Source of the DNA: a virus
Lineage: Duplodnaviria > Heunggongvirae > Uroviricota > Caudoviricetes
Strand: one strand, 5' to 3'
Length of the DNA stretch: 42,292 bases
Virus record (IMG/VR): IMGVR_UViG_2651869755_000015
Location: 1 to 42,292 of that record
A program made the position numbers and the translations under genes. Shown piece after piece: positions 1,260-41,776 of the stretch (within the stretch, counting starts at the first letter, position 1; each line of letters opens with the position of its first letter). The notes beneath the pieces are model-generated. The model saw only the letters and a list, made by a program, of their open reading frames with translations, was not told the origin of the DNA and did not search any database.

Positions 1260-1919
1260 CTATCCTTCCTGGACTTTGGTAAGCGTCAGATTTCCGCAGA
1301 ACACTGCGCCGGTGTCGATGTACATTTGGTTTGCATACACCAGTGGGTGATGTGCTGGCGTATGACCGAAGATGAACAAATCGGCACCGGTTATCTCCGA
1401 GACAATACCGTCCTGCGCGTCGCTAACCCGCTCACGATTCCATATCACCATTTCTTCCGGTACTGGCTTATCGAATGCGTATTCGTTGTGCGGGTAGTCT
1501 GCGTGGCAGATGACGACCTTCTTATTGCCGGTAACCAGTTCGATAATCATCGGGAGGTTGGTAACCTTTGGCAGAAGGTATTTGAGTTGCACATCCTGCT
1601 CAGAATCAAGTTGGTGCCACCATCCACCGCCGTTTGACATCCAATGTCCGAAACTTCCGCCGTTGACCAGTGCATCCAGCATCATCTGCTCATGGTTGCC
1701 ACGAACAGCTCGGAACCACGGCATAGTAATCAAATCCAGGCATTCGACGTTTTCAGCGCCGCGGTCAACAAGGTCACCAACGGAAATAAGCAAATCGCGC
1801 GCCGGGTCGAATGAAACTTTGTCGAGTTCGTTCATCAGCAGCGTGTAGCACCCATGCAGATCGCCGACGACGAAGATATTGCACCAGTCAGCGCCATTGA
1901 TGCGTTGATATAGGTTCAT
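1260..1919 (-). CDS. Ser/Thr protein phosphatase, calcineurin-like metallophosphoesterase (lambda PPase family)
   Basis: ATG at 1919 (ORF track extends upstream to 2039); motifs GDLHG, GDLVDRG, GNHE characteristic of PPP-family phosphatases. Confidence 0.85.
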
Positions 1920-2566
1920 GCTGCACGCTCCCGCCCCTGGTTGTCTGTTGGTGACAGCGGAGCATTGCTGAATGCATTTGTTAATCCGCCGATATCCAAC
2001 GCGTATCCAGGGTGTAGTTGTACTGCCGGATCTTCGCACTGATTACCCCAAACATCGAAGCCATGAGACGGCTGGCGGGCGAACAGTTCAATGCGAGAAA
2101 CATCTCCTAACAATTGCACAAGTTTTTCACGAACGACATCTGGTTTTCTTGAGTGCTCAAGCCGCGGTGCGGTAAATGACTGAACGATCCCTGCATTAAT
2201 GCGCGTAGGTAGTTTTCCCTTTACCGCAAACAGGCAATCTTCACTATTGGCGCGAGTCATGTGACCCATACCCATAACCAGTTTATCTGGTTGTCGACTA
2301 CCACATTTTATCCACGTGAAGCCCTTCATGGTCATAAGACGGAATTCCCAGGCTTCAACAACTTTTAGTGCTTCGAGTGGTTGTGTTGGCACCCACCACA
2401 TGGCCAACAGACAGTTTTCATCGGCCAAATCCCACACAGGAAGGCGGCAGATATCCAGCACACTCATAACCGGATATTTAAAACCGGCACCGCGATTACC
2501 ATCTGTGGCTTTGTCCCGGTATACCCAGGGTGGATCTGCATAGATTAGTGTGTATTTCTTAGTCAT
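1916..2566 (-). CDS. MT-A70 family DNA N6-adenine methyltransferase
   Basis: ATG at 2566; N-terminal YADPPW (DPPW) catalytic motif; 4-nt overlap with the downstream phosphatase gene. Confidence 0.75.
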
Positions 2567-2858
2567 AAACCACCCCACAACATCCTATGCCGCTATAGTC
2601 GCCACGGCGAAGGCCGTTACCTTTTGTGATACATTGGTCCCTGCGAACCGCGATCCTTGCACGCTCAACATCACCAGAAGCAACATCCATACACTGAAGC
2701 CAAAGGTGGGCGGCAATGCGGAACTGCCCTTTTTTCTCTCTTTCAATCGCGCGTTTTTCGATCTCTATCGCCGCAGGAGTAACGGCAACAACCTTTGAAG
2801 GGCTGCGCATTGAAACCTTGTTCATGTGATATTTTTCAAGTCGGCTTAACTTTCTCAC
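2559..2858 (-). CDS. Hypothetical protein (99 aa)
   Basis: ORF overlapping the methyltransferase start by 8 nt, consistent with operon membership; no motif recognised. Confidence 0.35.
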   Translation of the reverse strand: MRKLSRLEKYHMNKVSMRSPSKVVAVTPAAIEIEKRAIEREKKGQFRIAAHLWLQCMDVASGDVERARIAVRRDQCITKGNGLRRGDYSGIGCCGVVYD

Positions 2859-6905: not shown

Positions 6906-7721
6906 ATGAGCAGACATGCAACAGATTGGGCCTGGGAGACAGATCCAGGTAGCTCGTCATTAAAGCTCATACTGCTCTCGATGGCTGACAGAGCCGATGA
7001 ATATAACCTCTGCTACCCCAGCATAGAACGCCTCGTTAAAGACACTTGCCTGAATAAAAAAACCGTGCAGGCCGGGCTTATATCGCTCATGAAAATGGGG
7101 CTTATTTCAGATACCGGAGAGAGAAAGGGAGCGACGAAAAGAGTGCGGGTTTTCTCTCTTAATATAACCAAAAACGGGAACATTAAAGGCAACCGGGAAG
7201 GGGGTAATGAACCCGAAAACGGTAATGTTACCGAAAACGGGAATATACCCAAAAACGGGATGTTGAATGATCCCAAAAACGGGATGTTGAATGATCCCAA
7301 AAACGGGATCCAGAACCAGTCATATAACCAGTCATTTAACCAAGAGAGGGAGAGCAGGACAAAAAGCGGGGATTCTGTGCCTCATGACCCCGGCGCAAAC
7401 AACGCCGTGATGAATAACTTTGTTCCTCCTGGTGGGCCAGGGCAATTAGGCAAATTTGTCATGCATGAACAATGGCAGCCATCAGATGACTTTCTTCGGA
7501 AAAGCTCATTGCAGGGAATCTACCTGGACAGTCTGCCAACGGCACAGGAACTTGCAGAGTTCAGAATTTACTGGATGGCTGAGGGTAAGGCATACCATCA
7601 GGCACAGTGGGAGCAGAAGCTGGCAAGGCGGCTGCAGATTAGCAGACAGAAGCAATCAACATTACCTGATAACAACGTTCCGCACTGGAACAGCCCTGAA
7701 GCATGGGAGGATTTCTTGTGA
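6906..7721 (+). CDS. Replication initiator, lambda O-like (N-terminal HTH, repeat linker)
   Basis: 271 aa; central Asn/Gly/Pro-rich repeat (ENGNVTENGNIPKNGMLNDPKNGMLNDPKNG) encoded by direct DNA repeats; immediately upstream of the P-like gene. Confidence 0.7.
   Translation: MSRHATDWAWETDPGSSSLKLILLSMADRADEYNLCYPSIERLVKDTCLNKKTVQAGLISLMKMGLISDTGERKGATKRVRVFSLNITKNGNIKGNREGGNEPENGNVTENGNIPKNGMLNDPKNGMLNDPKNGIQNQSYNQSFNQERESRTKSGDSVPHDPGANNAVMNNFVPPGGPGQLGKFVMHEQWQPSDDFLRKSSLQGIYLDSLPTAQELAEFRIYWMAEGKAYHQAQWEQKLARRLQISRQKQSTLPDNNVPHWNSPEAWEDFL
7168..7308. repeat. Iteron array (candidate origin of replication) inside the O-like gene
   Basis: Six copies of CC(A/G)AAAACGG(G/T)A at 7168, 7213, 7231, 7249, 7273, 7297 (18- and 24-bp spacing; two identical 24-bp units CCCAAAAACGGGATGTTGAATGAT), followed by AT-rich AACCAGTCAT(A/T)TAACC repeats. 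Confidence 0.6.
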
Positions 7722-8503
7722 ACAACGTTTTTACCGCGATACAAAACCGTGACGGAGAAGCCCTTTCTCGCATGTCAGGTTATGAGCATCAGTACACCAA
7801 CAATGACAACGTGGTGAACATGTCAGCAGAGAGGCTTGTTGATGCCCTTTTCAAACAGCTGAAACAACTGTTTCCGGCGGCAGTGGTAACCAACCTGAAG
7901 ACGCCAGAGCAGGAAGTTGCTGCAAAACAGCAGTGGATTGCTGCGTTTGCCGAAGGGGGGATCCGAACCCGTGAACAGGTTTCTGCTGGTATGCGCCACG
8001 CCCGCGCCAGTGAGTCTCCGTTCTGGCCGTCGCCAGGGCAATTCATCAAGTGGTGTAAAGACAGCAAGATGGTTCTTGGCGTCACCATTGACGATGTGAT
8101 GGCGGAGTTTCACCGGTACAGCAAGGAAAAAAGTTTATATCCTGGTGGTCCCGAAAGATTCCCGTGGCGACATCCGATTATGTACTGGGTCGTATGTGAT
8201 ACCCGCCGTGCAATGTATCAGCGCCAGCTTAGCGAGATTGAGGTTGAGAAACACGCGCGCAGGCTGCTCGATGATTGGGCGAAAAAGGTGGCTTCCGGAC
8301 AGCAGATACCCGATCCGGTGATCAGCATACAGGCAAAGCCAGAACCCATGAGTACACCTCCGGACACAGGGAGAGACGTTTACCATCCACCAGGGCGAAG
8401 TTTCGGGTGCATGCCTAACGCCGCCACCCTGGGGGGAATAACACCGGCGCAGTGGCTGATGGAGGAATACAGGCGGGGAAAGGCGTCAGGATTTATCAAG
8501 TAA
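7703..8503 (+). CDS. Replication protein P-like (helicase loader)
   Basis: QQWIAAFAEGGIRTREQVSAGMRHARASESPFWPSPGQFIKWC closely parallels the recalled lambda P segment RQWVLAFRENGITTMEQVNAGMRVARRQNRPFLPSPGQFVAWC; overlaps the O-like gene end. Confidence 0.8.
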   Translation: MGGFLVNNVFTAIQNRDGEALSRMSGYEHQYTNNDNVVNMSAERLVDALFKQLKQLFPAAVVTNLKTPEQEVAAKQQWIAAFAEGGIRTREQVSAGMRHARASESPFWPSPGQFIKWCKDSKMVLGVTIDDVMAEFHRYSKEKSLYPGGPERFPWRHPIMYWVVCDTRRAMYQRQLSEIEVEKHARRLLDDWAKKVASGQQIPDPVISIQAKPEPMSTPPDTGRDVYHPPGRSFGCMPNAATLGGITPAQWLMEEYRRGKASGFIK

Positions 8504-8540
8504 TACCAGCGCGATAGCGCATTTTTTTACGTCTCGATAA

Positions 8541-8617
8541 TTACCTTAGAGGTAATAAAATATTCTAAAATCTATTGATTTCGTGTCTTATGTGGTTTTT
8601 AATTACCTAAGGGGTAA
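8541..8617. promoter_or_regulatory. Two operator-like dyads upstream of the 8621 gene
   Basis: TTACCTTAGAGGTAA (8541-8555) and TTACCTAAGGGGTAA (8603-8617); CTTATGTGGTTTTT motif between them. Confidence 0.55.
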
Positions 8618-8620
8618 ATC

Positions 8621-8968
8621 ATGAAAAAACAGATGCAGGCTCTTGGTCGACTCAAAACAGGCCAGATGAACAAAACAGAATCTGCGTATTGCCAGCACCT
8701 TGAGCTGCGTAAACGTGCAGGAGAAATCGTCTGGTATCGATTTGAGGGTATCAAGCTGCGGTTAGCTGACAACACGTTCTATACGCCAGATTTTGCTGTG
8801 ATGCTCGCCACCGGCGAGATGGAACTGCACGAAGTGAAAGGGGGATTCTGGACCGATGACGCCAGAGTGAAAACCAAAGTCGCCGCAGATCAGTATCCGT
8901 TCCGAATCATCGGGGTAACGGTTAAGCCAAAGAAAGCAGGTGGTGGCTGGAACATCGAAGAGTTCTGA
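8621..8968 (+). CDS. DUF1064-like phage protein (putative PD-(D/E)xK-type nuclease)
   Basis: 115 aa; pattern YTPDF...ELHEVKG typical of small phage nuclease-fold proteins; family assignment is by recall. Confidence 0.45.
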   Translation: MKKQMQALGRLKTGQMNKTESAYCQHLELRKRAGEIVWYRFEGIKLRLADNTFYTPDFAVMLATGEMELHEVKGGFWTDDARVKTKVAADQYPFRIIGVTVKPKKAGGGWNIEEF

Positions 8969-9029: not shown

Positions 9030-9467
9030 ATGGAAAGTAATATCAAATGGTTAGTTGCCGCCGGGCATGAGATGGCTTCGGAACTGAAAGCAGAATGTGG
9101 TGCCGTTGATATGCGCAGTGTGGCAAAGCTGATCAGCTATTTGGCAACGCAACTGGAAGTGCAACTGGTGCGTGCTAATGCGCTGGCTGCGGAGAATGCG
9201 CTGGCTCGTAAAGCAGTTCAGGCATTTTGCGATGTTGTTGGCGACAGCACCGAGGTTATCTGCGAGGAGATTGGGCGAGATGGCGTTCTGGTTATTTTGG
9301 AGGCAATGAAGGCAACAGGAAATATGCCAGCCACCGATGCTTTCCTGTCTGAAGTGCGGGCGCAGGGGGTAGAGATGATGCGCGAACATCCATCAATCAA
9401 ACTTTGTTCTTTGACGCACATATGTGATGAGTTAGCCGCCCAGCTTCGCAAAGGAGGCAGCCAGTGA
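9030..9467 (+). CDS. Hypothetical early protein (145 aa)
   Basis: ATG with GAGGG Shine-Dalgarno; 4-nt overlap with next gene. Confidence 0.45.
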   Translation: MESNIKWLVAAGHEMASELKAECGAVDMRSVAKLISYLATQLEVQLVRANALAAENALARKAVQAFCDVVGDSTEVICEEIGRDGVLVILEAMKATGNMPATDAFLSEVRAQGVEMMREHPSIKLCSLTHICDELAAQLRKGGSQ

Positions 9468-9952
9468 GCAAGATTGACTATCAAAAGCTTCGTGAAATCG
9501 CTGAAAAAACAAAAATTGCTGGTGAAGCACCTGTAATGCCTTTCGATCAGCGAATTAATGCGCTTAACGATTTTATGAAGCACTTTTCGCCAGATATCGT
9601 GCTGGCATTGTTGGATGAGATCAACGCATTAGAGGAAACGCGTATCAACGATGTTTGCCGTATTGCGGAACTAACAAAACAACTGGAGTTGGCAAAATCA
9701 AAACTCAACGAGCAGCGTGAGTATTACGAGGGCGTTATCTCGGATGGAAGTAAGCGCATAGCAGAGTTAGAAAGTGATTCTCAGGCACAAAAGTTAGTTG
9801 AAGCAATCATTGTTGCGATAGAAAACGAACAGGAACGTCTTTTTGATGAAGATTACCTAATGGATTCGAAAGAATGCATTGACGTAATTCGTGAAGAAGT
9901 AAAGCGATGGAATGATTCCCGCGCCGCTGGCATTCGCATCAAAGGAGAGTGA
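9464..9952 (+). CDS. Ead/Ea22-like coiled-coil protein
   Basis: GTG start after AAAGGAGG; N-terminus MSKIDYQKLREIAEK and coiled-coil character typical of Ea22-like proteins. Confidence 0.5.
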   Translation: MSKIDYQKLREIAEKTKIAGEAPVMPFDQRINALNDFMKHFSPDIVLALLDEINALEETRINDVCRIAELTKQLELAKSKLNEQREYYEGVISDGSKRIAELESDSQAQKLVEAIIVAIENEQERLFDEDYLMDSKECIDVIREEVKRWNDSRAAGIRIKGE

Positions 9953-9953: not shown

Positions 9954-10709
9954 ATGATTCACTACCACGGTGGGCCTATTACTCCTGATACGTGCGCAAT
10001 GAGAGCATGGAAAGGGCGACATGCGTTTATCAGTTTTGCGCATTCAGGCCAGATCAATCTCGCGGCTGAATACTGTCAGTCGTTCGCGCTGGACAACGGT
10101 GCATTCACCGCCTGGAAAGCAGCTGGCAAAAACAAAATCGACTGGAGCGATTACTACGAGTTTGTTGCTCGCTGGAAGAATCACCCAGGATTCGATTTTG
10201 CCATTATCCCGGATGTTATTGATGGCGGAGAGGAGGAAAATGATGCGCTTCTGAATGAGTGGCCTCACGGAAAACTAGCTGGCGTTCCAGTGTGGCACAT
10301 GAATGAAAGTGACGAGCGATTTATTCATTTGTGCAATGAGTTTCCGCGAGTGGCTATCGGTAGTTGTGGCGACTATGACGTAAAGCGCCCAACTCTTGCG
10401 GTAGCCAGAATGAAAGACCTGATTCGTCACATTGTTGATGGGCATGGTCAGCCGGTTACGAAACTACATGGATTGCGCATGTTAAATCCGCTGATATTCA
10501 CAAAATTACCCTTAGCCAGCGCAGATAGTACGAACGTCGCTCGAAACATCGGTATTGATAAAGCCTGGTCTGGGGCTTATGCACCTGCAAGTAAAGAGAC
10601 ACGCGCAGCATTAATGGTAGAACGGATTGAGGCACACAATAGCCCTGGTTCTCTTGCGTATTGTGAACAACGCGACCGCTTTGAAATGCAATTGCAACTA
10701 GCAGTTTAA
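9954..10709 (+). CDS. Candidate tRNA-guanine-transglycosylase-like (DpdA-like) TIM-barrel protein
   Basis: ATG at 9954 after AAAGGAGAG; segments FALDNGAF, FAIIPDV, VAIGSCGDY, KLHGLRMLNP parallel E. coli Tgt segments LTDSGGFQ, VMIFDEC, YAVGGLAVGE, YLMGVGKP (recalled). Confidence 0.45.
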   Translation: MIHYHGGPITPDTCAMRAWKGRHAFISFAHSGQINLAAEYCQSFALDNGAFTAWKAAGKNKIDWSDYYEFVARWKNHPGFDFAIIPDVIDGGEEENDALLNEWPHGKLAGVPVWHMNESDERFIHLCNEFPRVAIGSCGDYDVKRPTLAVARMKDLIRHIVDGHGQPVTKLHGLRMLNPLIFTKLPLASADSTNVARNIGIDKAWSGAYAPASKETRAALMVERIEAHNSPGSLAYCEQRDRFEMQLQLAV

Positions 10710-10719: not shown

Positions 10720-11580
10720 ATGACCACTATTACCAAAGAACGTATTGAATTGTTCATTAAAAATCCGCTTGAAAACGGGCTTACTCGTGGCGAACAAATG
10801 GAACTGGCACGAATTGCACTGGCATCGCTGGAAGGCGAGCCGATAGGTTTCCGTTGCAGGCGCAATGATAACCTTGGTGATTGGAGTTACGTATATCATC
10901 GAGAGCCAGATGATTTTGAGCGCAAACATTTAGTGATAGAGGGCATTTACGCCGCCCCTCCAGCGCCGGTAGTACCGGAAGAAAAACCAATGCCTAATCC
11001 TCTTAGCATGTACGCGGTTGATGCTGTTGCCGCTATTGCAGAGGTGAGAGGCTGGAATGCCCGCCGCGCCGCCATGCTTCAGTCCGGAAACTTTCGGGAA
11101 AACAAGAATTCGTCAACCAATAATTTTCGGGAAATCGCGGAAACGTCAACCAACTATCCGGTAATTCCTAGTGAGGTGTTGTCCGCAATCCAGAAGGTTG
11201 CCAAGATTCGTGCCGATTTCGATGATTTTGACGGTGACAGGCGAGGTATCGGTGATTGTCTGGATGAGGCTGAGCAAGAGCTTATCGTTACCATTAACAA
11301 ATATGCCAGTCAGTTGGCAGCAGAACCTATAGCGCCTAATGACGTTCGAGAGCAGACAGCCATTCCGCAAGTTCCGGTAATTCCGGATGGTTGGATAAGC
11401 TGTAGTGAGCGAATGCCGAACGACGCGCAGTGGTGCGTAGTGAACACAGAATACGGGTATTACGTGCAATGCTGGTCTGAAGGTCAAGGGTGGCTTGGTG
11501 ATGATATCAGCATACCTGAATGCGATGTAATCAATTGGATGCCTCTACCAGAACCGCCGAAGGAGGTTAACCGTGGCTAA
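10720..11580 (+). CDS. DUF551-domain phage protein
   Basis: C-terminal WISCSERMPNDAQWCVVNTEYGYYVQCW...VINWMPLPEPP resembles DUF551; internal direct DNA repeat at 11090-11160. Confidence 0.5.
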   Translation: MTTITKERIELFIKNPLENGLTRGEQMELARIALASLEGEPIGFRCRRNDNLGDWSYVYHREPDDFERKHLVIEGIYAAPPAPVVPEEKPMPNPLSMYAVDAVAAIAEVRGWNARRAAMLQSGNFRENKNSSTNNFREIAETSTNYPVIPSEVLSAIQKVAKIRADFDDFDGDRRGIGDCLDEAEQELIVTINKYASQLAAEPIAPNDVREQTAIPQVPVIPDGWISCSERMPNDAQWCVVNTEYGYYVQCWSEGQGWLGDDISIPECDVINWMPLPEPPKEVNRG

Positions 11581-15202: not shown

Positions 15203-15279
15203 TGGCGTGGCATGCAGGATTCGAACCTGCGACCAACCGCTTAGAAGGCGGTTGCTCTGTCCAACTGAGCTAATGCCAC
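15203..15279 (-). tRNA. tRNA-Arg (anticodon UCU)
   Basis: Minus-strand 77-nt sequence GTGGCATTAGCTCAGTTGGACAGAGCAACCGCCTTCTAAGCGGTTGGTCGCAGGTTCGAATCCTGCATGCCACGCCA folds as a cloverleaf (7-bp acceptor stem, GTTCGAATC T-loop, anticodon loop CTTCTAA, 3' CCA). Confidence 0.85.
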
Positions 15280-18612: not shown

Positions 18613-19599
18613 ATGGCTGTTAAAGGCTTAACTGCGCTAACGCTGGCTGACTGGGGTAAGCGCGTCGATCAAAACGGGAAAGTCGATAAGATTATCGAGC
18701 TTCTCGGTCAAACTAACCCGATCCTTCAGGATATGCCTTTTGTCGAAGGGAACCTTCCTACCGGACACCGAACCACCATTCGTTCTGGTTTACCTTCAGC
18801 TACCTGGCGTTTGCTGAACTATGGCGTACAGCCAAGCAAATCAACCACAGTGCAGGTAACCGATTCCGTTGGCATGCTGGAAACCTATGCTGAAGTCGAT
18901 AAGTCACTGGCTGATCTGAACGGTAATACCGCCGAATTCCGCCTGTCTGAAGACCGCGCATTTATTGAAGCGATGAATCAGCAGATGGCGCAGACGCTGT
19001 TTTATGGTGATTCCAGCGTTAACCCTCAGCAGTTTATGGGACTGTCCTCCCGCTATTCCAGCCTGTCTGCAGGTAATGCTCAGAACATCATTGATGCTGG
19101 TGGCACGGGTACAGATAACACCTCAATCTGGTTAGTAGTGTGGGGCGAAAACACCGTGCATGGCATCTTCCCGAAAGGGCAGAAGGCTGGCATCCAGATG
19201 GAAGATAAAGGCCAGGTGACACTGGAAGATGCGAATGGCGGCAAGTACGAAGGCTACCGTACCCATTACAAATGGGACAACGGACTTACTCTGCGTGACT
19301 GGCGTTATGTTGTTCGCATTGCAAACATCGATGTCAGAAATCTTTCAGAACCTTCCTCTGCCGCAAATATTGCGAAGTTGATGGTTAAAGCACTGCATCG
19401 CATTCCAAACCGTGGCATGGGTCGCCCGGTGTTCTACATGAACCGCACTGTAGGCCAGGCTCTTGATCTGCAGTCTCTGGAGAAAACATCTCTGGCGATT
19501 AGCGTAAAAGAGACTGAAGGCGAGTGGTGGACGTCATTCCGTGGTGTACCAATCCGTGAAACTGATGCGCTTCTGGAAACAGAAGCCCGCGTGGTGTAA
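18613..19599 (+). CDS. Major capsid protein
   Basis: 328 aa following scaffold; followed by stem-loop GTGGGTC/GACCCAC (about 19608-19629) as often seen after capsid genes. Confidence 0.75.
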   Translation: MAVKGLTALTLADWGKRVDQNGKVDKIIELLGQTNPILQDMPFVEGNLPTGHRTTIRSGLPSATWRLLNYGVQPSKSTTVQVTDSVGMLETYAEVDKSLADLNGNTAEFRLSEDRAFIEAMNQQMAQTLFYGDSSVNPQQFMGLSSRYSSLSAGNAQNIIDAGGTGTDNTSIWLVVWGENTVHGIFPKGQKAGIQMEDKGQVTLEDANGGKYEGYRTHYKWDNGLTLRDWRYVVRIANIDVRNLSEPSSAANIAKLMVKALHRIPNRGMGRPVFYMNRTVGQALDLQSLEKTSLAISVKETEGEWWTSFRGVPIRETDALLETEARVV

Positions 19600-19650
19600 C
19601 GCCTGTTATTAACCTGTGGGTCGTAACAGACCCACTAATGGAGAAAGAAG

Positions 19651-20088
19651 ATGATCACCGACAAACTGTTGATGTTCTCCGAAGCACAGGCGGTAACTGA
19701 TACCGCGGCTTCTACTGACGTAATCGATCTCGGTCCAATTGATGGAAACCGTCGCGATATCGGTGTGGGTTACCCGCTTGAGTTTTGGGGGCTGGTTAAC
19801 GAAGCCGCCACGGCAAGTGGTGAGGCAACTGTAAACATCCAGTTGCAGACGAGTGAGAATAACAGCTCTTGGACCACTATTTATGATAGTGGTGCGTTGG
19901 CAAAGGCCACCCTGACAGCAGGTAAGCGAGTTGTTTCTGCAAAGGTGCCAGCCGGTGTTCAGCGATATCTGCGTGTTAACTACTCCGTCGCAACTGGCCC
20001 ACTAACGGCCGGCAAATTCACTGCGGGTATCAGTCTGGATGTTGATGCCAATACGCCGTACCCGATCCGCTCAAAAGTAACTGGTTAA
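19651..20088 (+). CDS. Hypothetical virion protein (possible capsid decoration/accessory)
   Basis: 145 aa directly downstream of capsid gene with good Shine-Dalgarno (GGAGAAAG). Confidence 0.45.
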   Translation: MITDKLLMFSEAQAVTDTAASTDVIDLGPIDGNRRDIGVGYPLEFWGLVNEAATASGEATVNIQLQTSENNSSWTTIYDSGALAKATLTAGKRVVSAKVPAGVQRYLRVNYSVATGPLTAGKFTAGISLDVDANTPYPIRSKVTG

Positions 20089-20098
20089 GGTGATATCG

Positions 20099-20434
20099 AT
20101 GTCAGGTGAGAAACCAAGATACCGCGTTCTGCGCCTCTCTCATATCCATAACACACTGTGGCCGGAGGGGGCAGAAATCGAATACGAAGGTGAGCCTGGT
20201 AGCGCACTGGAACCTGTTAACGATGCAGCCAGACAGGCAAAAGCAAAGGTAGCAGGAAAGGTGTCTATGGCAGCAACCAGCACCAAAATCATCAACGATG
20301 TGTCAGATGATGGTGAACTGGATAAGCTCCGTGAAGAGTACGAATTGCTCTTTAACGAGAAGCCACACCATAACGCCAAAGCCGAAACGCTCCGCGAGAA
20401 GATCGCAGATAAGCGTAAAGAACTGGGCGTGTAA
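20099..20434 (+). CDS. Hypothetical protein (111 aa)
   Basis: ATG at 20099 (track starts at GTG 20090); followed by terminator. Confidence 0.4.
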   Translation: MSGEKPRYRVLRLSHIHNTLWPEGAEIEYEGEPGSALEPVNDAARQAKAKVAGKVSMAATSTKIINDVSDDGELDKLREEYELLFNEKPHHNAKAETLREKIADKRKELGV

Positions 20435-20450
20435 GCCTCGCGAATCAGAC

Positions 20451-20472
20451 AAGGGGCTTCGGCCCCTTTATT
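20451..20472 (+). terminator. Hairpin terminator after capsid module
   Basis: Stem AAGGGGC/GCCCCTT, loop TTCG, then TATT. Confidence 0.45.
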
Positions 20473-20490
20473 GCAGGAGTATAGAAACTT

Positions 20491-21096
20491 ATGGCCTCTG
20501 TAGTAGAGATCTGCAATCGTGCGCTGTCCAATATTGGCAACAGCCGCAGTATTAACAGCCTGACGGAAGCCAGCAAGGAAGCGGGGGAATGTTCGCTGCA
20601 CTTTGAGGCCTGCCGTGATGCTGTGCTTTCTGATTTTGACTGGAACTTTGCTACCAAACGCGTGGCGCTTGCAGATACGAACAATCCACCGCCTGACTGG
20701 GAATATGCGTACCAGTACCCGTCCGATTGTCTGCGCATTACTGAAATTATGCTTCCTGGTGTACGCAATCCAACAGCAGCAATGCGCGTTCAGTACGAAG
20801 TTGGTGCAGACACCAACGGAACAGGAAAGTTGATCTACACAGACCAGCCGCAGGCATGGCTCAAGTATGTATCTCGCGTTACAGATGTGAACATGTTTGA
20901 TGCCATTTTTATGGAGGCGTTGGCCTGGCGTCTTGCGGCAGCTATTAACATGGCGCTGACTGGGAATGCAGACCTCGGTACGTTTGCCCTCAATATGTAC
21001 AATCGCGTGATTCTTAGTGCTGGCTCGCATAGCCAGAATGAATCACAGGAACCACTGCCACCGGTTGACGAGTTTACCATTGCGAGGTTGTCCTGA
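20491..21096 (+). CDS. Tail tubular protein A-like / head-tail adaptor (T7 gp11-position)
   Basis: 201 aa preceding an 823-aa protein, mirroring the T7 gp11/gp12 size pair; weak direct similarity. Confidence 0.45.
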   Translation: MASVVEICNRALSNIGNSRSINSLTEASKEAGECSLHFEACRDAVLSDFDWNFATKRVALADTNNPPPDWEYAYQYPSDCLRITEIMLPGVRNPTAAMRVQYEVGADTNGTGKLIYTDQPQAWLKYVSRVTDVNMFDAIFMEALAWRLAAAINMALTGNADLGTFALNMYNRVILSAGSHSQNESQEPLPPVDEFTIARLS

Positions 21097-28896: not shown

Positions 28897-31445
28897 TGGC
28901 AGCAAACGAATTTTTGACGCAGTGCGAGCGCAGTGTAAATGCTGCCGCTGGTCGCGAGCTTTCTTCCGATGAGATGGAGTCGCTGGTGCGTGACATGAAC
29001 GACACCACTAGGCGAATTCTGGCGACCAATGAGGCGCTGTCTCTGGAAGAGGCCGCGATGCGCGCAGCGGAAGAACTGAGCAATGCCGATATGCTGGCAA
29101 AACAGATTGAGGCTCGCAATAAGGCAATCAACGCCCGTATTGCCGCACAACGACTTAGAGAGCTTCGTACTATCTGGAAAGACCGCCCGGATATCGGGCT
29201 TGAAGCAATGCTGGTTGGCCGCAACGATGCGCGTACCGGCGCCCGCCGGTCGGTATCTTCGGAGGTGGCGCAACTGCGCGGCAAGTATCATTCCGGTATC
29301 AACTACGATTTTGACCGTGCCGGGCTGGTGCAATTCATCGCCAGCGGCAGCAATGACCGGGAAATTGCCGATGCAATGTGGCGCATAGGGCGCGGGCAGT
29401 CAACTGACGGTATGACAAAGCAATCCGTAAGCGCTGCACAAATCATCATGAAATGGCAGGAAACTGCGCGCATTGATGAGAACCGCGCCGGGGCATGGAT
29501 ACGCAAAGAGCCGGGCTATATAGTGCGCCAGTCACACGACATCATGAAGATCCGCGCCGCAGGTTATGAAGCATGGCGAAATGCTATTCTCCCGCGCCTT
29601 GATGAGCGCACTTTTGACGGCGTGGCTGACCGCGAGCAGTTCATGCGTAACATTTATAACGGGCTGGCTTCCGGCGTGCATCTTACATCTGAAAAGCCCG
29701 ATTGGATGAATGGCTTTAAGGGATCGGCGAACGCAGCTAAACGCGCCAGCCAAGAGCGAATTTTGCACTTCAAAGATGGTATCTCGTGGCACGAGTACAA
29801 CCAGCAATTCGGCACCGGCAGCCTGCGAGAAGCGCTGTTTGGTGGCTTAAACAGCGCTGCCCGCACAACGGGCATGATGCGCGTACTGGGCACTAACCCA
29901 CAGAACATGTTTAAGTACCTGACGGACGCCATTGCTGAAGATATCAGCAAATCCGGAAGACCGGCAGCGTTGGCTGACTACATGACGAAGGTGCGTCGCA
30001 TTAACCGTACCGTAATGCCGCAGGTTGACGGCTCGCTAAATATTCCTGGCAGCGTAGGCTGGGCCAATGCGTCGGCGGCTGTACGCGGCTGGTTGCGTAT
30101 GAGCCAACTTGGTGGCGCGGTAATCTCATCGTTTAACGACGTGCCTATCGCCGCTACCGAGATGCGCTACCAAGGGCAGAATTTTATGCAGGCGTTGCTT
30201 GGTGCTATGAGAGGCCGCTTCACGCGTTACAACAGCGCGGAGCAGAAAGAGATCCTTTCCTCTATCGGAGTTTATTCCGACTCCATGACGCAGGAAATCA
30301 TCCGGCGCATATCTGGTGATGACACGCTGAATGGAAAGCTTGGTCGCGCGCAGCAGCTTTTCTTTAAGTACAACCTCATGAACTTCTGGACCGAGAGCGG
30401 TCGCAACAGCAACGCCATGATGATAACCAACTGGCTTGCAAAGAATGCTGACCAGTCTCATGCGCGGCTACCGGAAGACCTGCGACGCGTGCTGGATCTG
30501 CACGGTATTGGCGAACGTGAGTGGGAAATTTTTCGCAACATGGACATGGCCGATAGCGAAGGTCGTAAGTTCATGACGACCAGCGGCATCCGCGGCGTGC
30601 CTGACGAAGTGATTGCCGGTTATGTAGAGAGTAAGGGGATCAAACCAACGCAGCGCGCTATCGCTGACGCACGCGATCAATTGGAAGGGCAGTTGCGCGG
30701 CTACATCCTTGACCGCCTGAATATCGCCATGTCAGAGCCTGGCGATCGCACGCAGGCGTTTATGAAGATGGGCACGGTGCCAGGAACGGTGGCTGGGGAA
30801 GCAATACGATTCGCTGGTCAGTACAAATCGTTCACTGCAAGCTTCATGCAGAACGTACTAGGACGCGAAGTATTCGGGCGTGGTTATATTCCTGCTGGGC
30901 TTGGTGAGTCGAAAACCGGATCGCTGACGAATGCGCTGCTACGTAACGGGAAGGGGGCTTTCCTTGGTGCTGCAAACCTCTTTGTCTGGGCGACTATGTT
31001 TGGTTATATCTCCATGCAGTCAAAACTCATGCTGAAAGGGCAAACACCACGCCCGGCAGATGCCAAGACGTTTCTCGCAGCCGCATCTCAGGGGGGCGGT
31101 CTTGGCATCTTGGGTGACTTCATGTTTGGTGAGGTCAACCGCATGGGGGCCGGGCCGGTTACGTCGCTAATGGGGCCAGCAGCATCGAACGCTGACAGCA
31201 TTATCACGCTGCTCCAGCAGACCACGAGAGGGGATGCAGATTTGGGTGACTGGTATCGCACGGCACTTGACAATACGCCATTCCTCAACGTGTTCTGGCT
31301 TCGTACGGCGATGAATGGTTTAATATTGAACCGGATACAAGATGCCCTTGACCCAGGCTCTCTTGAGCGTTATCAGCGCCGTGTTGAGCGTGAGCAGGGG
31401 AACGACTTTCTGATCCCACCATCGCAGTTCATGCTAGGTAAATAA
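28896..31445 (+). CDS. Large internal virion/ejection protein
   Basis: ATG at 28896 overlapping the previous stop; 850 aa; last gene of the high-GC structural block. Confidence 0.5.
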   Translation: MAANEFLTQCERSVNAAAGRELSSDEMESLVRDMNDTTRRILATNEALSLEEAAMRAAEELSNADMLAKQIEARNKAINARIAAQRLRELRTIWKDRPDIGLEAMLVGRNDARTGARRSVSSEVAQLRGKYHSGINYDFDRAGLVQFIASGSNDREIADAMWRIGRGQSTDGMTKQSVSAAQIIMKWQETARIDENRAGAWIRKEPGYIVRQSHDIMKIRAAGYEAWRNAILPRLDERTFDGVADREQFMRNIYNGLASGVHLTSEKPDWMNGFKGSANAAKRASQERILHFKDGISWHEYNQQFGTGSLREALFGGLNSAARTTGMMRVLGTNPQNMFKYLTDAIAEDISKSGRPAALADYMTKVRRINRTVMPQVDGSLNIPGSVGWANASAAVRGWLRMSQLGGAVISSFNDVPIAATEMRYQGQNFMQALLGAMRGRFTRYNSAEQKEILSSIGVYSDSMTQEIIRRISGDDTLNGKLGRAQQLFFKYNLMNFWTESGRNSNAMMITNWLAKNADQSHARLPEDLRRVLDLHGIGEREWEIFRNMDMADSEGRKFMTTSGIRGVPDEVIAGYVESKGIKPTQRAIADARDQLEGQLRGYILDRLNIAMSEPGDRTQAFMKMGTVPGTVAGEAIRFAGQYKSFTASFMQNVLGREVFGRGYIPAGLGESKTGSLTNALLRNGKGAFLGAANLFVWATMFGYISMQSKLMLKGQTPRPADAKTFLAAASQGGGLGILGDFMFGEVNRMGAGPVTSLMGPAASNADSIITLLQQTTRGDADLGDWYRTALDNTPFLNVFWLRTAMNGLILNRIQDALDPGSLERYQRRVEREQGNDFLIPPSQFMLGK

Positions 31446-31447
31446 TA

Positions 31448-32008
31448 ATGAAGGCAATTATATTTTTTGTTTCAATATTGATGTCTGCATTTTCTTTTGC
31501 AGGGCAAAATGTTAAATGCGAACTTCAATACTTTGGAGATAGCGATAAATTTAAGGTAACTCAGTTTTCTTTTATGGGGATTCCATCTGATTCATACCTT
31601 TATACCTGTGCCGACTGTGGAGGCATCCAGATAAACGTGTTCCCATCTATTCAGACTGTTGCCTCCTACTCATTTGAAAACAACATTGATTTCGAAAGGA
31701 AAATCAATGCTGAATACAACAGAAAAGACATAGCTAAACTTGAGATGGAAAACGTTACTCAAGGCGGGAGAATAAAATATTCAATCACCGATACTGGTTT
31801 GGCAGAGTTTTACCCAGAGGGCAAAAAGATAAGCTACCTCTACTTTTTAGCCAAGCAACAAAATGGTAAAGAACAAGTAGGTTATTCAGGATTTGTTACC
31901 TCTAACGGGGATAAGTCATGCTCAATTATTGCGACATATCCAGGAAAAGAAATTTCTTTTCTGGGAAGTAAATCTTTAAGCTACTTTATGAATCATATAT
32001 CAATGTAG
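31448..32008 (+). CDS. AT-rich secreted protein (signal peptide), accessory
   Basis: N-terminal MKAIIFFVSILMSAFSFAGQ signal-peptide-like; visibly AT-rich codon usage; followed by palindrome copy 3. Confidence 0.55.
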   Translation: MKAIIFFVSILMSAFSFAGQNVKCELQYFGDSDKFKVTQFSFMGIPSDSYLYTCADCGGIQINVFPSIQTVASYSFENNIDFERKINAEYNRKDIAKLEMENVTQGGRIKYSITDTGLAEFYPEGKKISYLYFLAKQQNGKEQVGYSGFVTSNGDKSCSIIATYPGKEISFLGSKSLSYFMNHISM

Positions 32009-32022
32009 CGTGACATGTCACA
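32009..32022. repeat. 14-bp perfect palindrome CGTGACATGTCACA (copy 3, inverted orientation)
   Basis: Exact reverse complement of the 14-mer at 12194 and 14598. Confidence 0.85.
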
Positions 32023-32123
32023 GGCCGCTTTCGCGGTCTTGTTTTTAACGGATGCCACCGCCACCCGGGCGGGAATCCGCAGAACGCCCACCGCAGCGGG
32101 AGCCGTCAGCAGCAGTGTCGCTG

Positions 32124-32627
32124 TTATACTATTGAGTTAAATGATATCTTGTCCTTAATATCATTAAGTTTGCCATATATCTTTTTTGCATAAAAATCAG
32201 CTTCCTCAATAAACTTCGACTTCTCATTATCAGGCATATTTTTGAAGGTATGTGCACATGTATATTGAGAGTAGTAATTGTGAAACTTGTTATACATATT
32301 ATTGAGTTCTTGTAAGTCTTTTTTATACTCAGGAAGGTATATGTTTATTAGCATTTCCATCGTTTGCAACGGATTGACTTTTGATGTGTCAAATTTACTA
32401 TCAGAGTGGTAACTGGCATTGTTAACAAAATTGAGAATAGCCATTTTGTTTGAAGCTATGACTTTTTCAGTAAGTATGCAATTTGTGAATAATTGCTCAC
32501 GTTTATCTCTTAATATTTTTTCGCGCTCTAATTTTATGCTGTTTTTGTATCCTTGCCTTGCACTTATGTAAGTAGAAACTATAGCAATAACTGCACCTAT
32601 CAATGCGCCTAAGATAGTATTATCCAT
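32124..32627 (-). CDS. AT-rich membrane-anchored protein (1 predicted TM), accessory
   Basis: ATG at 32627 after AGGTGG; N-terminal hydrophobic helix ILGALIGAVIAIVSTYI; Lys/Asn/Tyr-rich soluble domain. Confidence 0.5.
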   Translation of the reverse strand: MDNTILGALIGAVIAIVSTYISARQGYKNSIKLEREKILRDKREQLFTNCILTEKVIASNKMAILNFVNNASYHSDSKFDTSKVNPLQTMEMLINIYLPEYKKDLQELNNMYNKFHNYYSQYTCAHTFKNMPDNEKSKFIEEADFYAKKIYGKLNDIKDKISFNSIV

Positions 32628-32652
32628 ATAAGCCACCTAAACTGCGTAAAAA

Positions 32653-33516
32653 TTATTTCCTGCCACTTCTGTAGTATATGTTGCGACCATTTTTGGTCAC
32701 ATTAACAACATGACCCTTTGTTTCTACTTTGTTATTGGTTGCCTTATATACTTCAAAGTCAAACCATGATATATGACTTATTTCGTCTATAGATACCATA
32801 ATTTCTAGACCTTGAACTTTCTTTTTGCTTATCCCTTTTATCGCAGCACTGCGCTTAATTTGGATTTCACCTGGGTAAGCGTTTGTAAATGTAACAGATA
32901 AATTTTCTTTGTTTCTGTACCCTGACATTAAAGGAACAAAAGATATGTGTTGGTGTGGCCCTTGATTTTCCGTTGGCTCACCAGAACCATTTATTATTCC
33001 AACGTATACTTTATTTGATGATAAAGTAATTAACATTGGTTTCTTAGGATCTGATTCGATTGCATCAAGCAATAGCAAATCTAAAGAACCCTGGGAGTAC
33101 GTTTTTCGCAATACTCTAGCTTTCATTGCCTCTGATATTTTGTCATAAATATCACGTTTATAAAAACAACCTAAAAGAAGATCTTTTAGCCAAACAAAAG
33201 ATACATAACACAAAGAGAAGCAAATTGATGTGACTGACAGAAGAAGTAGCCACATGTAAATTCTATCTGTTTCTGGTTTTGACGTTACATTAAAAGTTTC
33301 CACCATGTCGTGAACTAGGTGAAAATCAGGATATTTACATTTTATAAATGCGGCAATTATTACTGAAGCAACAAGGCAATATGTACCTAATGCAGCTACT
33401 TTCATATAAAGAAGCTGGCCTTCATGTCGGTATAAACGGAAATAATGATACTGGTTAGCGGTTATCATAATATAACCACTAACCAGAATGGGGATAATTA
33501 GAAGAGCTAACAACAC
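32653..33516 (-). CDS. AT-rich multi-pass membrane protein, accessory
   Basis: 287 aa; about 3 hydrophobic helices in the first ~110 residues then a soluble domain; GTG start overlapping the upstream stop (TAGTG). Confidence 0.55.
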   Translation of the reverse strand: MLLALLIIPILVSGYIMITANQYHYFRLYRHEGQLLYMKVAALGTYCLVASVIIAAFIKCKYPDFHLVHDMVETFNVTSKPETDRIYMWLLLLSVTSICFSLCYVSFVWLKDLLLGCFYKRDIYDKISEAMKARVLRKTYSQGSLDLLLLDAIESDPKKPMLITLSSNKVYVGIINGSGEPTENQGPHQHISFVPLMSGYRNKENLSVTFTNAYPGEIQIKRSAAIKGISKKKVQGLEIMVSIDEISHISWFDFEVYKATNNKVETKGHVVNVTKNGRNIYYRSGRK

Positions 33517-33725
33517 TATTTCCTTACAGTGGCAAGATCCTGTTTAACAATTGCAGCAGCGAGACGACGCATCTCTTTAACCTCAGGAAGCTCAGAAATT
33601 TGCTGTGATGAGATATATACTCCACCACGCTTGTTAACCTGCGCTGACGCCGGAACTTCTGCATTTTTTGCCTGAGGGCTGGGTGCATTATCCCTCGTTT
33701 TTGTACGAGCGAACCAAAATCCCAT
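33516..33725 (-). CDS. Hypothetical small protein (69 aa), first gene of the accessory operon
   Basis: Normal-GC ORF translationally coupled to the membrane protein; operator dyad upstream. Confidence 0.4.
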   Translation of the reverse strand: MGFWFARTKTRDNAPSPQAKNAEVPASAQVNKRGGVYISSQQISELPEVKEMRRLAAAIVKQDLATVRK

Positions 33726-33751
33726 ATCTCCTCCTCATGTAAACACATGGT

Positions 33752-33766
33752 TTACCTTTAGGGTAA
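33752..33766. promoter_or_regulatory. Operator-like dyad TTACCTTTAGGGTAA
   Basis: Perfect dyad in the 113-bp spacer upstream of the accessory operon; preceded by ACACATGGTT. Confidence 0.55.
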
Positions 33767-33838
33767 TAGTACGCTATTCACTCCCAGTCTGCAATCTGTA
33801 CAGAATTATTTAAAGGCACATCCCTGTGCCGCCGCCCG

Positions 33839-34573
33839 TCAGAAGAACCCTGCCTTGTCGTTGATGTACTCCGCGTGGGTCTGGATATCACGCAGGCATT
33901 TGCTCACACCGACGATGTAGCAGAACATGGTGGTCAGCTCCGCCGCCGCGCCCGATACGTCGTGCCCGTCTTCCTGTAACTGGTTCAGCAGATTCATCAG
34001 CAGTGAGTTCTCCGTCAGGCCGAGAACACCAGACGGCGAATGAATCAGGCTGCGGTAGCCGGGCTTCAGTGGGGCACTGTATTCTTTTTTGTCTTCCAGC
34101 TTGATCGCCTCCATAATGGCGGGCATGAATTTTTCAATTACCTGAGTGGCCTTTGATAAATCAGCTCCACCTGAGAGACGAACATCTCCACTGACATTTG
34201 CGGGTTTTCTGTCGAAGTAGCAATCTTCCAGTTTTTCGAAGACCTCCCACGCTTTTTCAGTCTCAAGAATTTTCGCATGTCGTGCTGCACCGCGAGCGGT
34301 CCATAAGAAAAGATGACTTACTTTTGGTGCAATATTAAGCAAACCTCTTTGAGAGGACTCGTTCTTAAATGCTCGTAATTCTTCGCCTATCAGCTTGAAA
34401 CAATGTTTTCCCTCAATGAATCGATCTGCATTTCGTTGATAGTTTTGACGAATCAGTTTGGGTTCTGTGTCATACAAATCAGCAAGCATTTCTGTAGTCA
34501 TTACAGGGATGTTGCAATGAGTTGTTATCGGCAACTTATCAATAGCTATATTACGCATTTTCATTGCCTCCAT
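33839..34573 (-). CDS. Antirepressor-like protein (ORF6N/Ant N-terminal domain plus C-terminal domain)
   Basis: N-terminal VMTTEMLADLYDTEPKLIRQNYQRNADRFIEGKHCFKL matches the ORF6N/Ant pattern; C-terminal ~70 aa homologous to the 35372-35629 product. Start may be 34558 or 34564. Confidence 0.65.
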   Translation of the reverse strand: MEAMKMRNIAIDKLPITTHCNIPVMTTEMLADLYDTEPKLIRQNYQRNADRFIEGKHCFKLIGEELRAFKNESSQRGLLNIAPKVSHLFLWTARGAARHAKILETEKAWEVFEKLEDCYFDRKPANVSGDVRLSGGADLSKATQVIEKFMPAIMEAIKLEDKKEYSAPLKPGYRSLIHSPSGVLGLTENSLLMNLLNQLQEDGHDVSGAAAELTTMFCYIVGVSKCLRDIQTHAEYINDKAGFF

Positions 34574-35057
34574 CTTTCACGACGAAATAGCAATTATCTT
34601 TATAATCTAACTGGATGAACTTTATGTTTTCAGGGAGTTTTACAGAAAGAGTTTTTGCACAAGCAAAACCAAAATCTGCGCCAGAAGCATCCATATACCT
34701 TAATAATTGTTTTAATGCTGAAGGAGAAAAAGTATCTACCTTCACCTCAACAGGGTAACCATCTTTTGTTTTTAGGTCTGGTTGACCTGGTCCACCAAGT
34801 ATTTCAGCGTTAAGGTATTTTGCTATTTCTGGATAAGCGTTGTATTCAGAGCGTAGTTTTGCCTTGTTATCGACTGCTAGTTGCATAAGATGATCAAACA
34901 AATTGGTATCTAAATCTGCCCCTTCATCCCACATTCTATTTCTACAGCTAATCAATTCACTGACCAGTGGTGCACTTTCTTGCCTTAGCATAAGAAGGAG
35001 TGGAGAATTAGAAATTAACCAATACAGATCGTCGTTTGAGATTTTTTGGCCTGGCAT
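34551..35057 (-). CDS. Hypothetical protein (168 aa) co-transcribed with antirepressor
   Basis: ORF with stop overlapping the ant start region. Confidence 0.45.
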   Translation of the reverse strand: MPGQKISNDDLYWLISNSPLLLMLRQESAPLVSELISCRNRMWDEGADLDTNLFDHLMQLAVDNKAKLRSEYNAYPEIAKYLNAEILGGPGQPDLKTKDGYPVEVKVDTFSPSALKQLLRYMDASGADFGFACAKTLSVKLPENIKFIQLDYKDNCYFVVKDGGNENA

Positions 35058-35211
35058 AGCGATACCTCTACTAGTAAGTTACCCACCACCGCAACGCCAA
35101 TTGCTGGTGGTGAACTGGACAAGGTTGGCGTACCGGCCTAGTAGGTACCGGCGCACCTTTCGGTGCCCCTGCCCAGCCCACCATAATTCGGATATGACTG
35201 TGCTATACGCA

Positions 35212-35235
35212 TAAAAAAACCACGTCTGGCGTGGT
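35212..35235 (-). terminator. Rho-independent terminator downstream of small antirepressor gene
   Basis: Minus strand ACCACGCCAGACGTGGT followed by TTTTTTT. Confidence 0.55.
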
Positions 35236-35325
35236 ATGCGCCTACTAGTAATCCGGGACGCCAATCCCGGCACTGGATTTTGCCAGTGCCTGATTACTAT
35301 GGCACAAGAGGAGTGCGATGTAAAT

Positions 35326-35340
35326 TTACCGCAAAGGTAA
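35326..35340. promoter_or_regulatory. Operator-like dyad TTACCGCAAAGGTAA
   Basis: Perfect dyad in the structured noncoding spacer 35058-35371. Confidence 0.5.
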
Positions 35341-35371
35341 ATATAAGCACTCCACTTGGTAATTGCAAACC

Positions 35372-35629
35372 TTATCTGGTTTGCTTTCGTAATTGTTCGG
35401 CACAATAGTCGAGATGTGTTTGCAGATCCTGCATAGACATCTGTGAGCTGGTGACGTAGTTAATCAGTGCAGTCAGTTCGGCAAGTGGGCCATCGACATT
35501 AAATCCATCCTTATCGAGATCCCGGAGTAATTTCATCAAGTGCGATCCCTCCACCAGTGACCTGACGCCTCCCGGCGTGTGAATCCTTTCGGTAAATCCG
35601 TCTTCCAGTGGATAGTGATACTGCTGCAT
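35372..35629 (-). CDS. Small antirepressor-like protein (homolog of Ant C-terminal domain)
   Basis: ATG at 35629 after GGAGAAG (track uses TTG at 35647); IHTPGGVRSLVEGSHLMKLLRDLDKDGFNVDGPLAELTALINYV aligns with IHSPSGVLGLTENSLLMNLLNQLQEDGHDVSGAAAELTTMFCYI of the 244-aa Ant; LexA box 22 bp upstream. Confidence 0.5.
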   Translation of the reverse strand: MQQYHYPLEDGFTERIHTPGGVRSLVEGSHLMKLLRDLDKDGFNVDGPLAELTALINYVTSSQMSMQDLQTHLDYCAEQLRKQTR

Positions 35630-35650
35630 CTTATCTTCTCCATGCAATAA

Positions 35651-35666
35651 CTGTATATTTATACAG
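35651..35666. promoter_or_regulatory. LexA (SOS) box CTGTATATTTATACAG
   Basis: AACTGTATATTTATACAGTA matches the E. coli LexA consensus TACTGTATATATATACAGTA at 18 of 20 positions, with perfect CTGT-N8-ACAG. Confidence 0.7.
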
Positions 35667-35705
35667 TATCAAATAATTTGTTTGCTATCCAGCACGTTTC
35701 GCAAA

Positions 35706-38800: not shown

Positions 38801-38813
38801 TAATAAATGCAAT

Positions 38814-41761: not shown

Positions 41762-41776
41762 GACTCCTCCTGATTA

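Follow-up and report, generated by a model that had tools for sequence, protein, structure and literature searches.

A stand-alone DpdA-like gene in an Escherichia coli prophage encodes a putative minimal, zinc-less DNA-guanine transglycosylase

A 251-residue protein encoded in the early region of an E. coli prophage belongs to the phage DpdA family, and its conserved residues match the active site of the tRNA-guanine transglycosylase (TGT) superfamily in order and position. By analogy with characterized homologues, we consider it probable, at roughly 60%, that this protein acts as a DNA-guanine transglycosylase and that, through it, small amounts of a preQ0-type base taken from the host enter phage DNA. 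The integrity of the gene and the selection acting on it, its family membership, the fold, the conserved active-site residues and the absence of precursor genes are established directly by the analyses described below. Throughout the text, "the window" refers to the whole stretch of 42,292 nucleotides of viral DNA that was analysed.

The gene and its prophage setting

The window is essentially one complete prophage. Because near-identical prophages are annotated with a "capsid staple protein gp10" and a T7 gp14-like core protein, the sequence suggests an epsilon15-like E. coli podovirus; these near-identical E. coli prophages adjoin guaA. The features that bear on the analysis are as follows.

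1-1257: integrase
1916..2578, minus strand: MT-A70 family N6-adenine DNA methyltransferase (PF05063, E 9e-21; also its PGAP name in a near-identical prophage)
Minus strand: recombination genes
Near 5.5-6.5 kb: repressor/PR-like divergent region
6906-7721: O-like initiator, rightward operon
7703-8503: lambda-P-like loader, rightward operon
8621-8968: DUF1064, rightward operon
9030-9952: two Ea22-type ORFs, rightward operon, just before the dpdA-like gene
9464..9952, plus strand: Ead/Ea22-like ORF directly upstream of the dpdA-like gene (PF13935, E 1e-14)
9941..9949, plus strand: Shine-Dalgarno sequence AAAGGAGAG, 4 nt upstream of the ATG at 9954, from direct reading of the sequence
9954..10709, plus strand: dpdA-like CDS, 251 aa plus stop; minimal zinc-less TIM-barrel transglycosylase (putative) of the phage DpdA family
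10720-11580: DUF551 protein, rightward operon, just after the dpdA-like gene and followed by small ORFs
12425: small terminase
13096: large terminase

The first-pass annotation of this DNA had placed a 251-aa product at 9954-10709, in the early region. The ORF is present, real and intact, and the placement holds in that the rightward operon carries the gene downstream of its O/P-like replication genes and upstream of the small terminase. An alternative start at 9912 would give a product of 265 aa; since homologues begin at MIHYHG, however, 251 aa is the correct length. The stop codon of the upstream Ea22-like ORF (TGA, 9950-9952) falls between the Shine-Dalgarno sequence and the ATG, with a single base separating TGA from ATG, and this ORF is apparently co-transcribed with the dpdA-like gene. 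The nearest promoter-like site upstream of the gene is distant, at 8534-8561, and no strong terminator-like site was found on the plus strand between 9300 and 11900.

Judging from its sequence match, the MT-A70 methyltransferase would be a second, independent DNA-modification gene of the prophage.

Assignment to the DpdA family

The window protein matches PHROG 887 ("queuine tRNA-ribosyltransferase") over its whole length with an E value of 2.3e-103; the DpdA of Enterobacteria phage 9g (9g DpdA), which has been validated experimentally, falls in this PHROG as well (E 2e-98). When a family profile built from a 59-sequence alignment (33-94% identity) was compared with 9g DpdA using hhalign, the two aligned with 98.4% probability and an E value of 4.2e-15 over 151 columns, with three pairs of segments in register: LDNGAF with LDSGAF, KLHG with KVHG, and SADST with SCDSS. 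Likewise, a tblastn search with 9g DpdA matches the window ORF directly (E 9e-5, approximately 22% identity over 152 residues). AlphaFold2 run on the family alignment produced a model with eight beta/alpha units, a pLDDT of 91.7 and a pTM of 0.88. A Foldseek search against viral models (BFVD) gave 29 matches at E <= 1e-3, and every functionally named one is a phage "queuine tRNA-ribosyltransferase". The window protein is accordingly modelled as a TGT-superfamily (beta/alpha)8 barrel without the zinc subdomain. The earlier proposal of a DpdA-like gene with a TGT fold is thus borne out by the PHROG held in common with 9g DpdA, by the hhalign result and by the invariance of the catalytic residues described below.

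Curated libraries gave a different picture. Searches of Pfam, NCBIfam and PDB sequences with the window protein returned no matches even at E <= 10, and at the same threshold none of the 59 family members matches PF01702, the Pfam TGT family. Because the validated 9g DpdA also lacks any Pfam match (PF01702 included) and any PDB match, these negatives carry no weight. The profile search against PF01702 that the first-pass annotation had put forward as a check therefore came out negative but does not refute the assignment, given that 9g DpdA fails it too. When the family HMM was searched against PDB sequences, only spurious matches to GCN4 coiled coils were obtained, and hhalign found nothing when the family profile was aligned to the single E. 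coli Tgt sequence. Foldseek against the PDB yielded only weak, generic TIM-barrel matches, with tryptophan synthase alpha ranked first. The best structural match of the model is Cap10, by a margin over bacterial DpdA of just 0.6 Z units.

Conserved residues and predicted active site

Six conserved segments of the protein are referred to below.

10083..10106, plus strand: FALDNGAF, residues 44-51, end of beta-strand 3; aligns to LDSGAF of 9g DpdA
10206..10223, plus strand: IPDVID, residues 85-90, end of beta-strand 4; P86 and D87 at least 90% conserved
10290..10310, plus strand: VWHMNES, residues 113-119, end of beta-strand 5; H115 and E118 nearly invariant
10350..10376, plus strand: VAIGSCGDY, residues 133-141, beta-strand 6; G136 at least 90% conserved; colinear with YAVGGLAVGE of Tgt
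10461..10490, plus strand: KLHGLRMLNP, residues 170-179, beta-strand 7; H172 invariant, aligns to H197 of 9g DpdA
10518..10532, plus strand: SADST, residues 189-193, beta-strand 8; aligns to SCDSS of 9g DpdA

Five residues (D47, H172, S189, D191 and S192) are invariant in the 59-sequence alignment, and others, among them H5, D87, H115, E118 and G136, are nearly so. The catalytic face of a TIM barrel is formed by the C-terminal ends of its strands, and it is there, on strands 1, 3, 4, 5, 6, 7 and 8, that the AlphaFold2 model places the conserved residues.

In bacterial DpdA, D95 serves as the acid/base, F99 as the base gate, D130 and H181 in base recognition, and D256 as the nucleophile (PMC10164549). 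D47, F51, D87, H115 and D191 of the window protein follow the order of these active-site residues, and the D..x3..F spacing of D47 and F51 equals that of D95 and F99; the residue matches to bacterial DpdA are drawn from order and strand position, not from superposition. D47 is thus predicted to be the general acid/base and F51 the base-stacking gate. D87 is the predicted base-recognition Asp and the likely counterpart of D130, with the qualification that hhalign pairs the strand-4 Asp of 9g DpdA with D90, three residues away, and not with D87. Conservation, strand position in the model and residue order point to H115 as the putative counterpart of H181. D191 is predicted to be the covalent nucleophile, equivalent to D256 of bacterial DpdA and to D264 in the FDCV motif of E. 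coli Tgt, and H172 is its predicted partner. This His-Asp pair corresponds to H197/D215 of 9g DpdA. A conserved His ("position 196") separates DpdA/DpdA1 from DpdA2 (PMC6884629), and this DpdA1-specific His is present here as the invariant H172, aligned to H197 of 9g DpdA. No CxCxxC zinc motif occurs in any of the 59 family members or in 9g DpdA, and the family alignment has no conserved Cys column.

The first-pass annotation had arrived at the TGT fold through the resemblance of three short segments to conserved TGT segments. FALDNGAF, VAIGSCGDY and KLHGLRMLNP are found at residues 44-51, 133-141 and 170-179, and the strings to which they were compared are genuine parts of E. coli Tgt (LTDSGGFQ at 87-94, YAVGGLAVGE at 209-218 and YLMGVGKP at 242-249) and occur in the same order. 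The first and third of these parallels gain independent support from the profile alignment to 9g DpdA. The set was incomplete, however: a fourth motif, SADST versus FDCV, escaped notice, although it contains the nucleophile Asp and is the most diagnostic of the four. The spacing that leads into this last motif is alike in the two proteins, with 20 residues from M244 to D264 in E. coli Tgt and 19 from H172 to D191 in the window protein.

Comparison with characterized enzymes

The enzyme of DpdA1 type from 9g is a validated DNA preQ0 transglycosylase that acts on DNA (PMC6884629). In addition to PHROG 887, it has the acid/base Asp, the DpdA1-specific His and the nucleophile Asp in common with the window protein, and both proteins lack a CxCxxC zinc motif and a Pfam match. 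The two differ in length, 317 aa for 9g DpdA versus 251 aa here, and their alignment spans just residues 66-222 of 9g DpdA. They also differ in setting: the 9g gene adjoins folE, queD, gat-queC and queE, whereas the window gene stands alone.

The bacterial DpdA of the Salmonella Montevideo Dpd system (PDB 7UI4) shares with the window protein the active-site order D..x3..F, D, H, D and, by analogy, presumably the double-displacement chemistry as well, at an identity of 14%. Its DNA-binding insertion Ins8 (approximately 128 residues) and its CxCx2Cx22H zinc site are absent from the window protein, which ends approximately 60 residues past the nucleophile Asp. In addition, bacterial DpdA needs the ParB-like ATPase DpdB, whereas the PGAP annotation of the near-identical prophages contains no dpdB or other dpd cluster gene, and it belongs to a host defence island while the window gene belongs to a phage.

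Cap10 of type IV CBASS (PDB 9NTN) is a TGT-like protein that handles a deazaguanine conjugated to a protein N-terminus rather than DNA. Like the window protein, it is zinc-less, and its catalytic Asp is preceded, approximately 20 residues earlier, by a His (H226/D248 in Cap10 versus H172/D191 here); the two proteins are 10% identical. Cap10 operates in a defence operon with the QueC-like Cap9 and a CD-NTase, the N-terminus of which is the substrate. No operon of this type was found here, in that tblastn detected no QueC-like gene in the window or in 80 relatives and the annotation of the near-identical prophages lists no Cap9 or CD-NTase genes.

E. coli Tgt, the PF01702 representative in this comparison, shares four colinear strand-end motifs with the window protein. 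It differs in having a zinc motif (CDCYTC at 302), which the window protein lacks, and in being approximately 125 residues longer, and no sequence-profile similarity between the two is detectable. The substrate of Tgt is tRNA, whereas the substrate expected for the window protein is DNA.

Selection, spread and mobility

A search of IMG/VR with a 14-sequence alignment as the query returned relatives that are all at least 67% identical. The dpdA-like gene is intact in every one of these 80 related loci (67-100% identity), and relative to the window copy the median dN/dS is approximately 0.02; synonymous sites are saturated while the proteins are still 93% identical. The gene is therefore real, intact and under strong purifying selection, and a decayed or non-functional ORF was rejected on the same two grounds, the dN/dS ratio and the 80 intact copies.

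Of 5,426 complete E. coli genomes, 204 contain an identical or near-identical gene, which RefSeq/PGAP names "hypothetical protein". A set of 5.8 billion proteins contains more than 7,855 homologues, the representatives of which form 813 clusters at 50% identity, and no Pfam domain is recorded among the 120 matches listed.

A copy in E. coli FORC 064 shows that the gene is exchanged between phages of unrelated backbone and between operons. This copy is 100% identical and again has an Ead/Ea22-like ORF upstream, within positions 19592-20756 of the locus. It lies in the leftward operon (exo/bet ... xis/int) of a degraded lambdoid prophage that adjoins ybhC.

Precursor supply and gene neighbourhood

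Neither the window nor the 80 related loci, each taken with flanks of up to 10 kb, contain a preQ0 synthesis or transport gene detectable by tblastn. The queries were FolE, QueD, Gat-QueC and QueE of 9g; QueC, QueD, QueE, QueF, YhhQ and Tgt of E. coli; a phage VUT-family transporter; and a phage QueD. Very divergent precursor genes could escape tblastn, and the PGAP annotation of the near-identical prophages agrees in listing none. Two claims of the first-pass annotation, that the window has no queuosine-precursor genes and that any such enzyme would depend on host precursors, are thus upheld, the latter for the 80 relatives as well. E. coli carries the queuosine pathway genes, queF among them, and since the phage lacks folE, queD, queE, queC and yhhQ, it would have to draw the base from this host pathway.

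That such a supply can suffice is indicated by other DpdAs. Expression of nt-1 DpdA2 alone gave 926-1607 dPreQ0 per 10^6 nt, a signal that disappeared when the host lacked functional queD, and VH7D DpdA2 in E. coli inserts mainly preQ1. In wild-type E. coli, 9g DpdA alone produced 84-790 dPreQ0 per 10^6 nt in plasmids, up to 0.3% of guanines (PMC6884629). By analogy, a host precursor supply that is sufficient for these enzymes should be feasible here.

The immediate neighbours of the gene are highly variable and fall into 59 clusters among 81 related loci. The Ea22-like ORF upstream and the DUF550/551-like ORF downstream each occur in only about 20 of these loci, and an obligate partner gene was rejected on these grounds. 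An N6-adenine DNA methyltransferase gene lies within 300 bp of dpdA, on the same strand and on either side, in 21 of the 81 loci, a raw count of loci that are non-independent. These methyltransferases belong to three unrelated families (Dam, PF05869; MT-A70, PF05063; D12, PF02086), which hints at a DNA-modification neighbourhood for dpdA relatives.

More distant homologues are found beside precursor genes. In the Drexlerviridae Escherichia phage vB_EcoD_Opt-719 (4522-5825), a dpdA homologue of 42% identity, annotated "hypothetical protein", is immediately preceded by a gene for a VUT-family (YhhQ-like) queuosine-precursor transporter, and no synthesis genes are annotated nearby; this arrangement suggests a salvage-plus-insertion pair. 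In Caulobacter phage DMCA, a 37%-identical homologue directly follows QueD.

Relation to the published DpdA-only phages

Hutinet et al. (2019) described a third and largest group of phage DpdAs, comprising 76 phages that have DpdA without preQ0/G+ genes (PMC6884629). The absence of linkage to preQ0/G+ genes therefore places the window gene in this published "DpdA-only" group and does not exclude it from DpdA, and we regard its membership as nearly certain. Supplementary Data 1 of that study lists, among others, SPN3UB (YP_007011024), HK106, SfI, BTP1, SEN1 and 7-11. The protein of Salmonella phage SPN3UB (gp54) is 93% identical to the window protein and equal to it in length, and its gene likewise follows the replication genes; gp032 of 7-11 (YP_004782407) is 36% identical, with all motifs conserved. 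As in the window prophage, there are no preQ0 genes in SPN3UB or 7-11. The host phages themselves differ, in that SPN3UB is a lambdoid siphovirus and 7-11 a lytic Moazamivirus, whereas the window gene resides in the epsilon15-like prophage by guaA.

Assays of two phages of this group for modified bases detected none or only traces. The DNA of Mycobacterium phage Orion is unmodified, and the DNA of Salmonella phage 7-11, the sole enterobacterial DpdA-only phage assayed, contains 50 dADG per 10^6 nt (approximately 0.02% of guanines) and no dPreQ0 (PMC6884629). The singleton DpdAs of gamma-proteobacterial phages form a cluster of their own, for which the authors raise the possibility of functional divergence (PMC6884629). 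No later work on singleton or prophage DpdAs was found in the literature searched. The stand-alone DpdA type is thus not new, having been catalogued in 2019, and the identification of this gene adds little beyond that study.

Proposed function and alternatives

In the reading that we favour, an epsilon15-like temperate phage would transcribe the gene along with its replication genes when it grows lytically. Like its homologues, the enzyme would flip out particular guanines of double-stranded phage DNA, and a free 7-deazaguanine base would then resolve the enzyme intermediate. This base, most likely preQ0 and possibly preQ1, would be supplied by the E. coli queuosine pathway, and the outcome would be a low-level modification of the dPreQ0 type that may blunt some restriction systems. 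The substrate, the base inserted, the level of modification and the protective effect are what we infer. Several observations weigh against this reading: the nil or trace modification of Orion and 7-11 DNA, the suspected divergence of the gamma-proteobacterial singletons, the searches of curated libraries and of E. coli Tgt that gave no match, the weak Foldseek matches in the PDB, the rank of the protein-directed Cap10 as best structural match, and the missing Ins8 and zinc site of bacterial DpdA.

The main competing explanation is that the protein is a true DpdA-family transglycosylase in which the transferred base or the acceptor has changed. The base may be preQ1, ADG, CDG or another host purine analogue, or the acceptor may be tRNA or protein, as for Cap10. 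The separate clustering of the gamma-proteobacterial singletons, with their suspected functional divergence (PMC6884629), speaks for this explanation, as do the finding of dADG and not dPreQ0 in 7-11 DNA and the preference of VH7D DpdA2 for preQ1 in E. coli. We nevertheless consider it unlikely, given that the nearest sequence relative of known activity, 9g DpdA, acts on DNA and that the neighbours of the gene are replication genes and DNA methyltransferases. The Cap10-like variant in particular is weakened by the mere 0.6 Z units that separate Cap10 from bacterial DpdA in the structural comparison, by the failure of tblastn to detect a QueC-like Cap9 in the window and 80 relatives, and by the lack of a QueC-like or cyclase gene in the annotation of the near-identical prophages. 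A broader version would assign the singleton DpdAs that temperate phages of enterobacteria and vibrios carry, zinc-less proteins of 250 aa, to a functionally distinct branch that draws on another intermediate of the host queuosine pathway than preQ0 (preQ1, CDG or ADG) or acts on a non-DNA acceptor and that forms, with the adenine methyltransferases often found next to it, a mobile multi-modification anti-restriction module in approximately 4% of E. coli genomes; this we offer as speculation with the odds well against it.

The enzyme might instead be expressed but near-silent or non-modifying in E. coli, with a small host pool of preQ0 and negligible modification as the result. E. coli QueF converts preQ0 onward in the queuosine pathway, and the phage carries no transporter or synthesis gene; the unmodified DNA of Orion and the 0.02% of guanines modified in 7-11 fit such an outcome. 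Alternatively, the protein could be a guanine-exchange or glycosylase enzyme with another role, for example in host takeover or DNA repair. The very strong purifying selection, the more than 7,800 homologues and the presence of the gene in 204 of 5,426 E. coli genomes argue for a selected function, however, and 9g DpdA, acting alone in a wild-type E. coli host, modifies as many as 0.3% of guanines; we judge near-silence to be quite improbable. A chance resemblance, in which an unrelated TIM-barrel enzyme such as an aldolase-like metabolic gene happens to carry TGT-like motifs, would be in keeping with the unmatched Pfam TGT family and with tryptophan synthase alpha at the top of the Foldseek search of the PDB. 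The first of these points loses its force with the equally unmatched 9g DpdA, and the hhalign alignment to 9g DpdA (E 4e-15) with the catalytic motifs in register, the common PHROG 887 and the BFVD matches to phage "queuine tRNA-ribosyltransferases" effectively refute this idea, leaving it with a negligible likelihood.

Modification of DNA with 7-deazaguanines is a means of phage counter-defence. Modification-dependent defences, GrwAB among them, in turn target DNA that carries 7-deazaguanine, and mutants that escape GrwAB map to dpdA (PMC12137116). Stand-alone DpdAs are the largest group of the 2019 survey, with 76 phages, and the least understood. Because the gene described here resides in an inducible type of E. 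coli prophage, it is genetically tractable, and host que mutants exist. The gene could serve to establish whether queuosine precursors of the host are by themselves enough for a phage to modify its DNA, and also which base is used and to what level; its value is as a tractable test case for an already recognised question.

Other features of the prophage

Several further observations on the window concern the prophage as a whole. The MT-A70 ORF (1916-2578, minus strand) is overlapped by a serine/threonine phosphatase ORF (1260-2039, minus strand), next to the integrase. Since the window begins at the integrase gene, attL lies outside it. At the other end, the host genes yfgI and yfgH occupy 41222-42292 (minus strand), and the right prophage end is therefore near 41.0-41.2 kb, past the lysis cassette. 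Within the O-like gene, positions 7160-7312 contain six tandem units of approximately 24 nt with the core CCCAAAAACGGGA, spaced 18-45 nt apart; these look like an iteron array and probably constitute the origin of phage replication, which, as in lambda, would then lie inside the initiator gene.

A tRNA-Arg gene (anticodon TCT; 15203-15279, minus strand) separates the large terminase gene from the portal gene, and a related prophage has a tRNA gene at the equivalent place. The segment from 31000 to 39000 has a low GC content, 37-46% versus about 50-57% elsewhere, and contains minus-strand ORFs, including one for a BRO-N protein, as well as a tail fibre gene at 35825-38800. Related prophages diverge in this segment, with a coverage of only 76-79%, and horizontal exchange of a host-range or moron cassette is the probable explanation.
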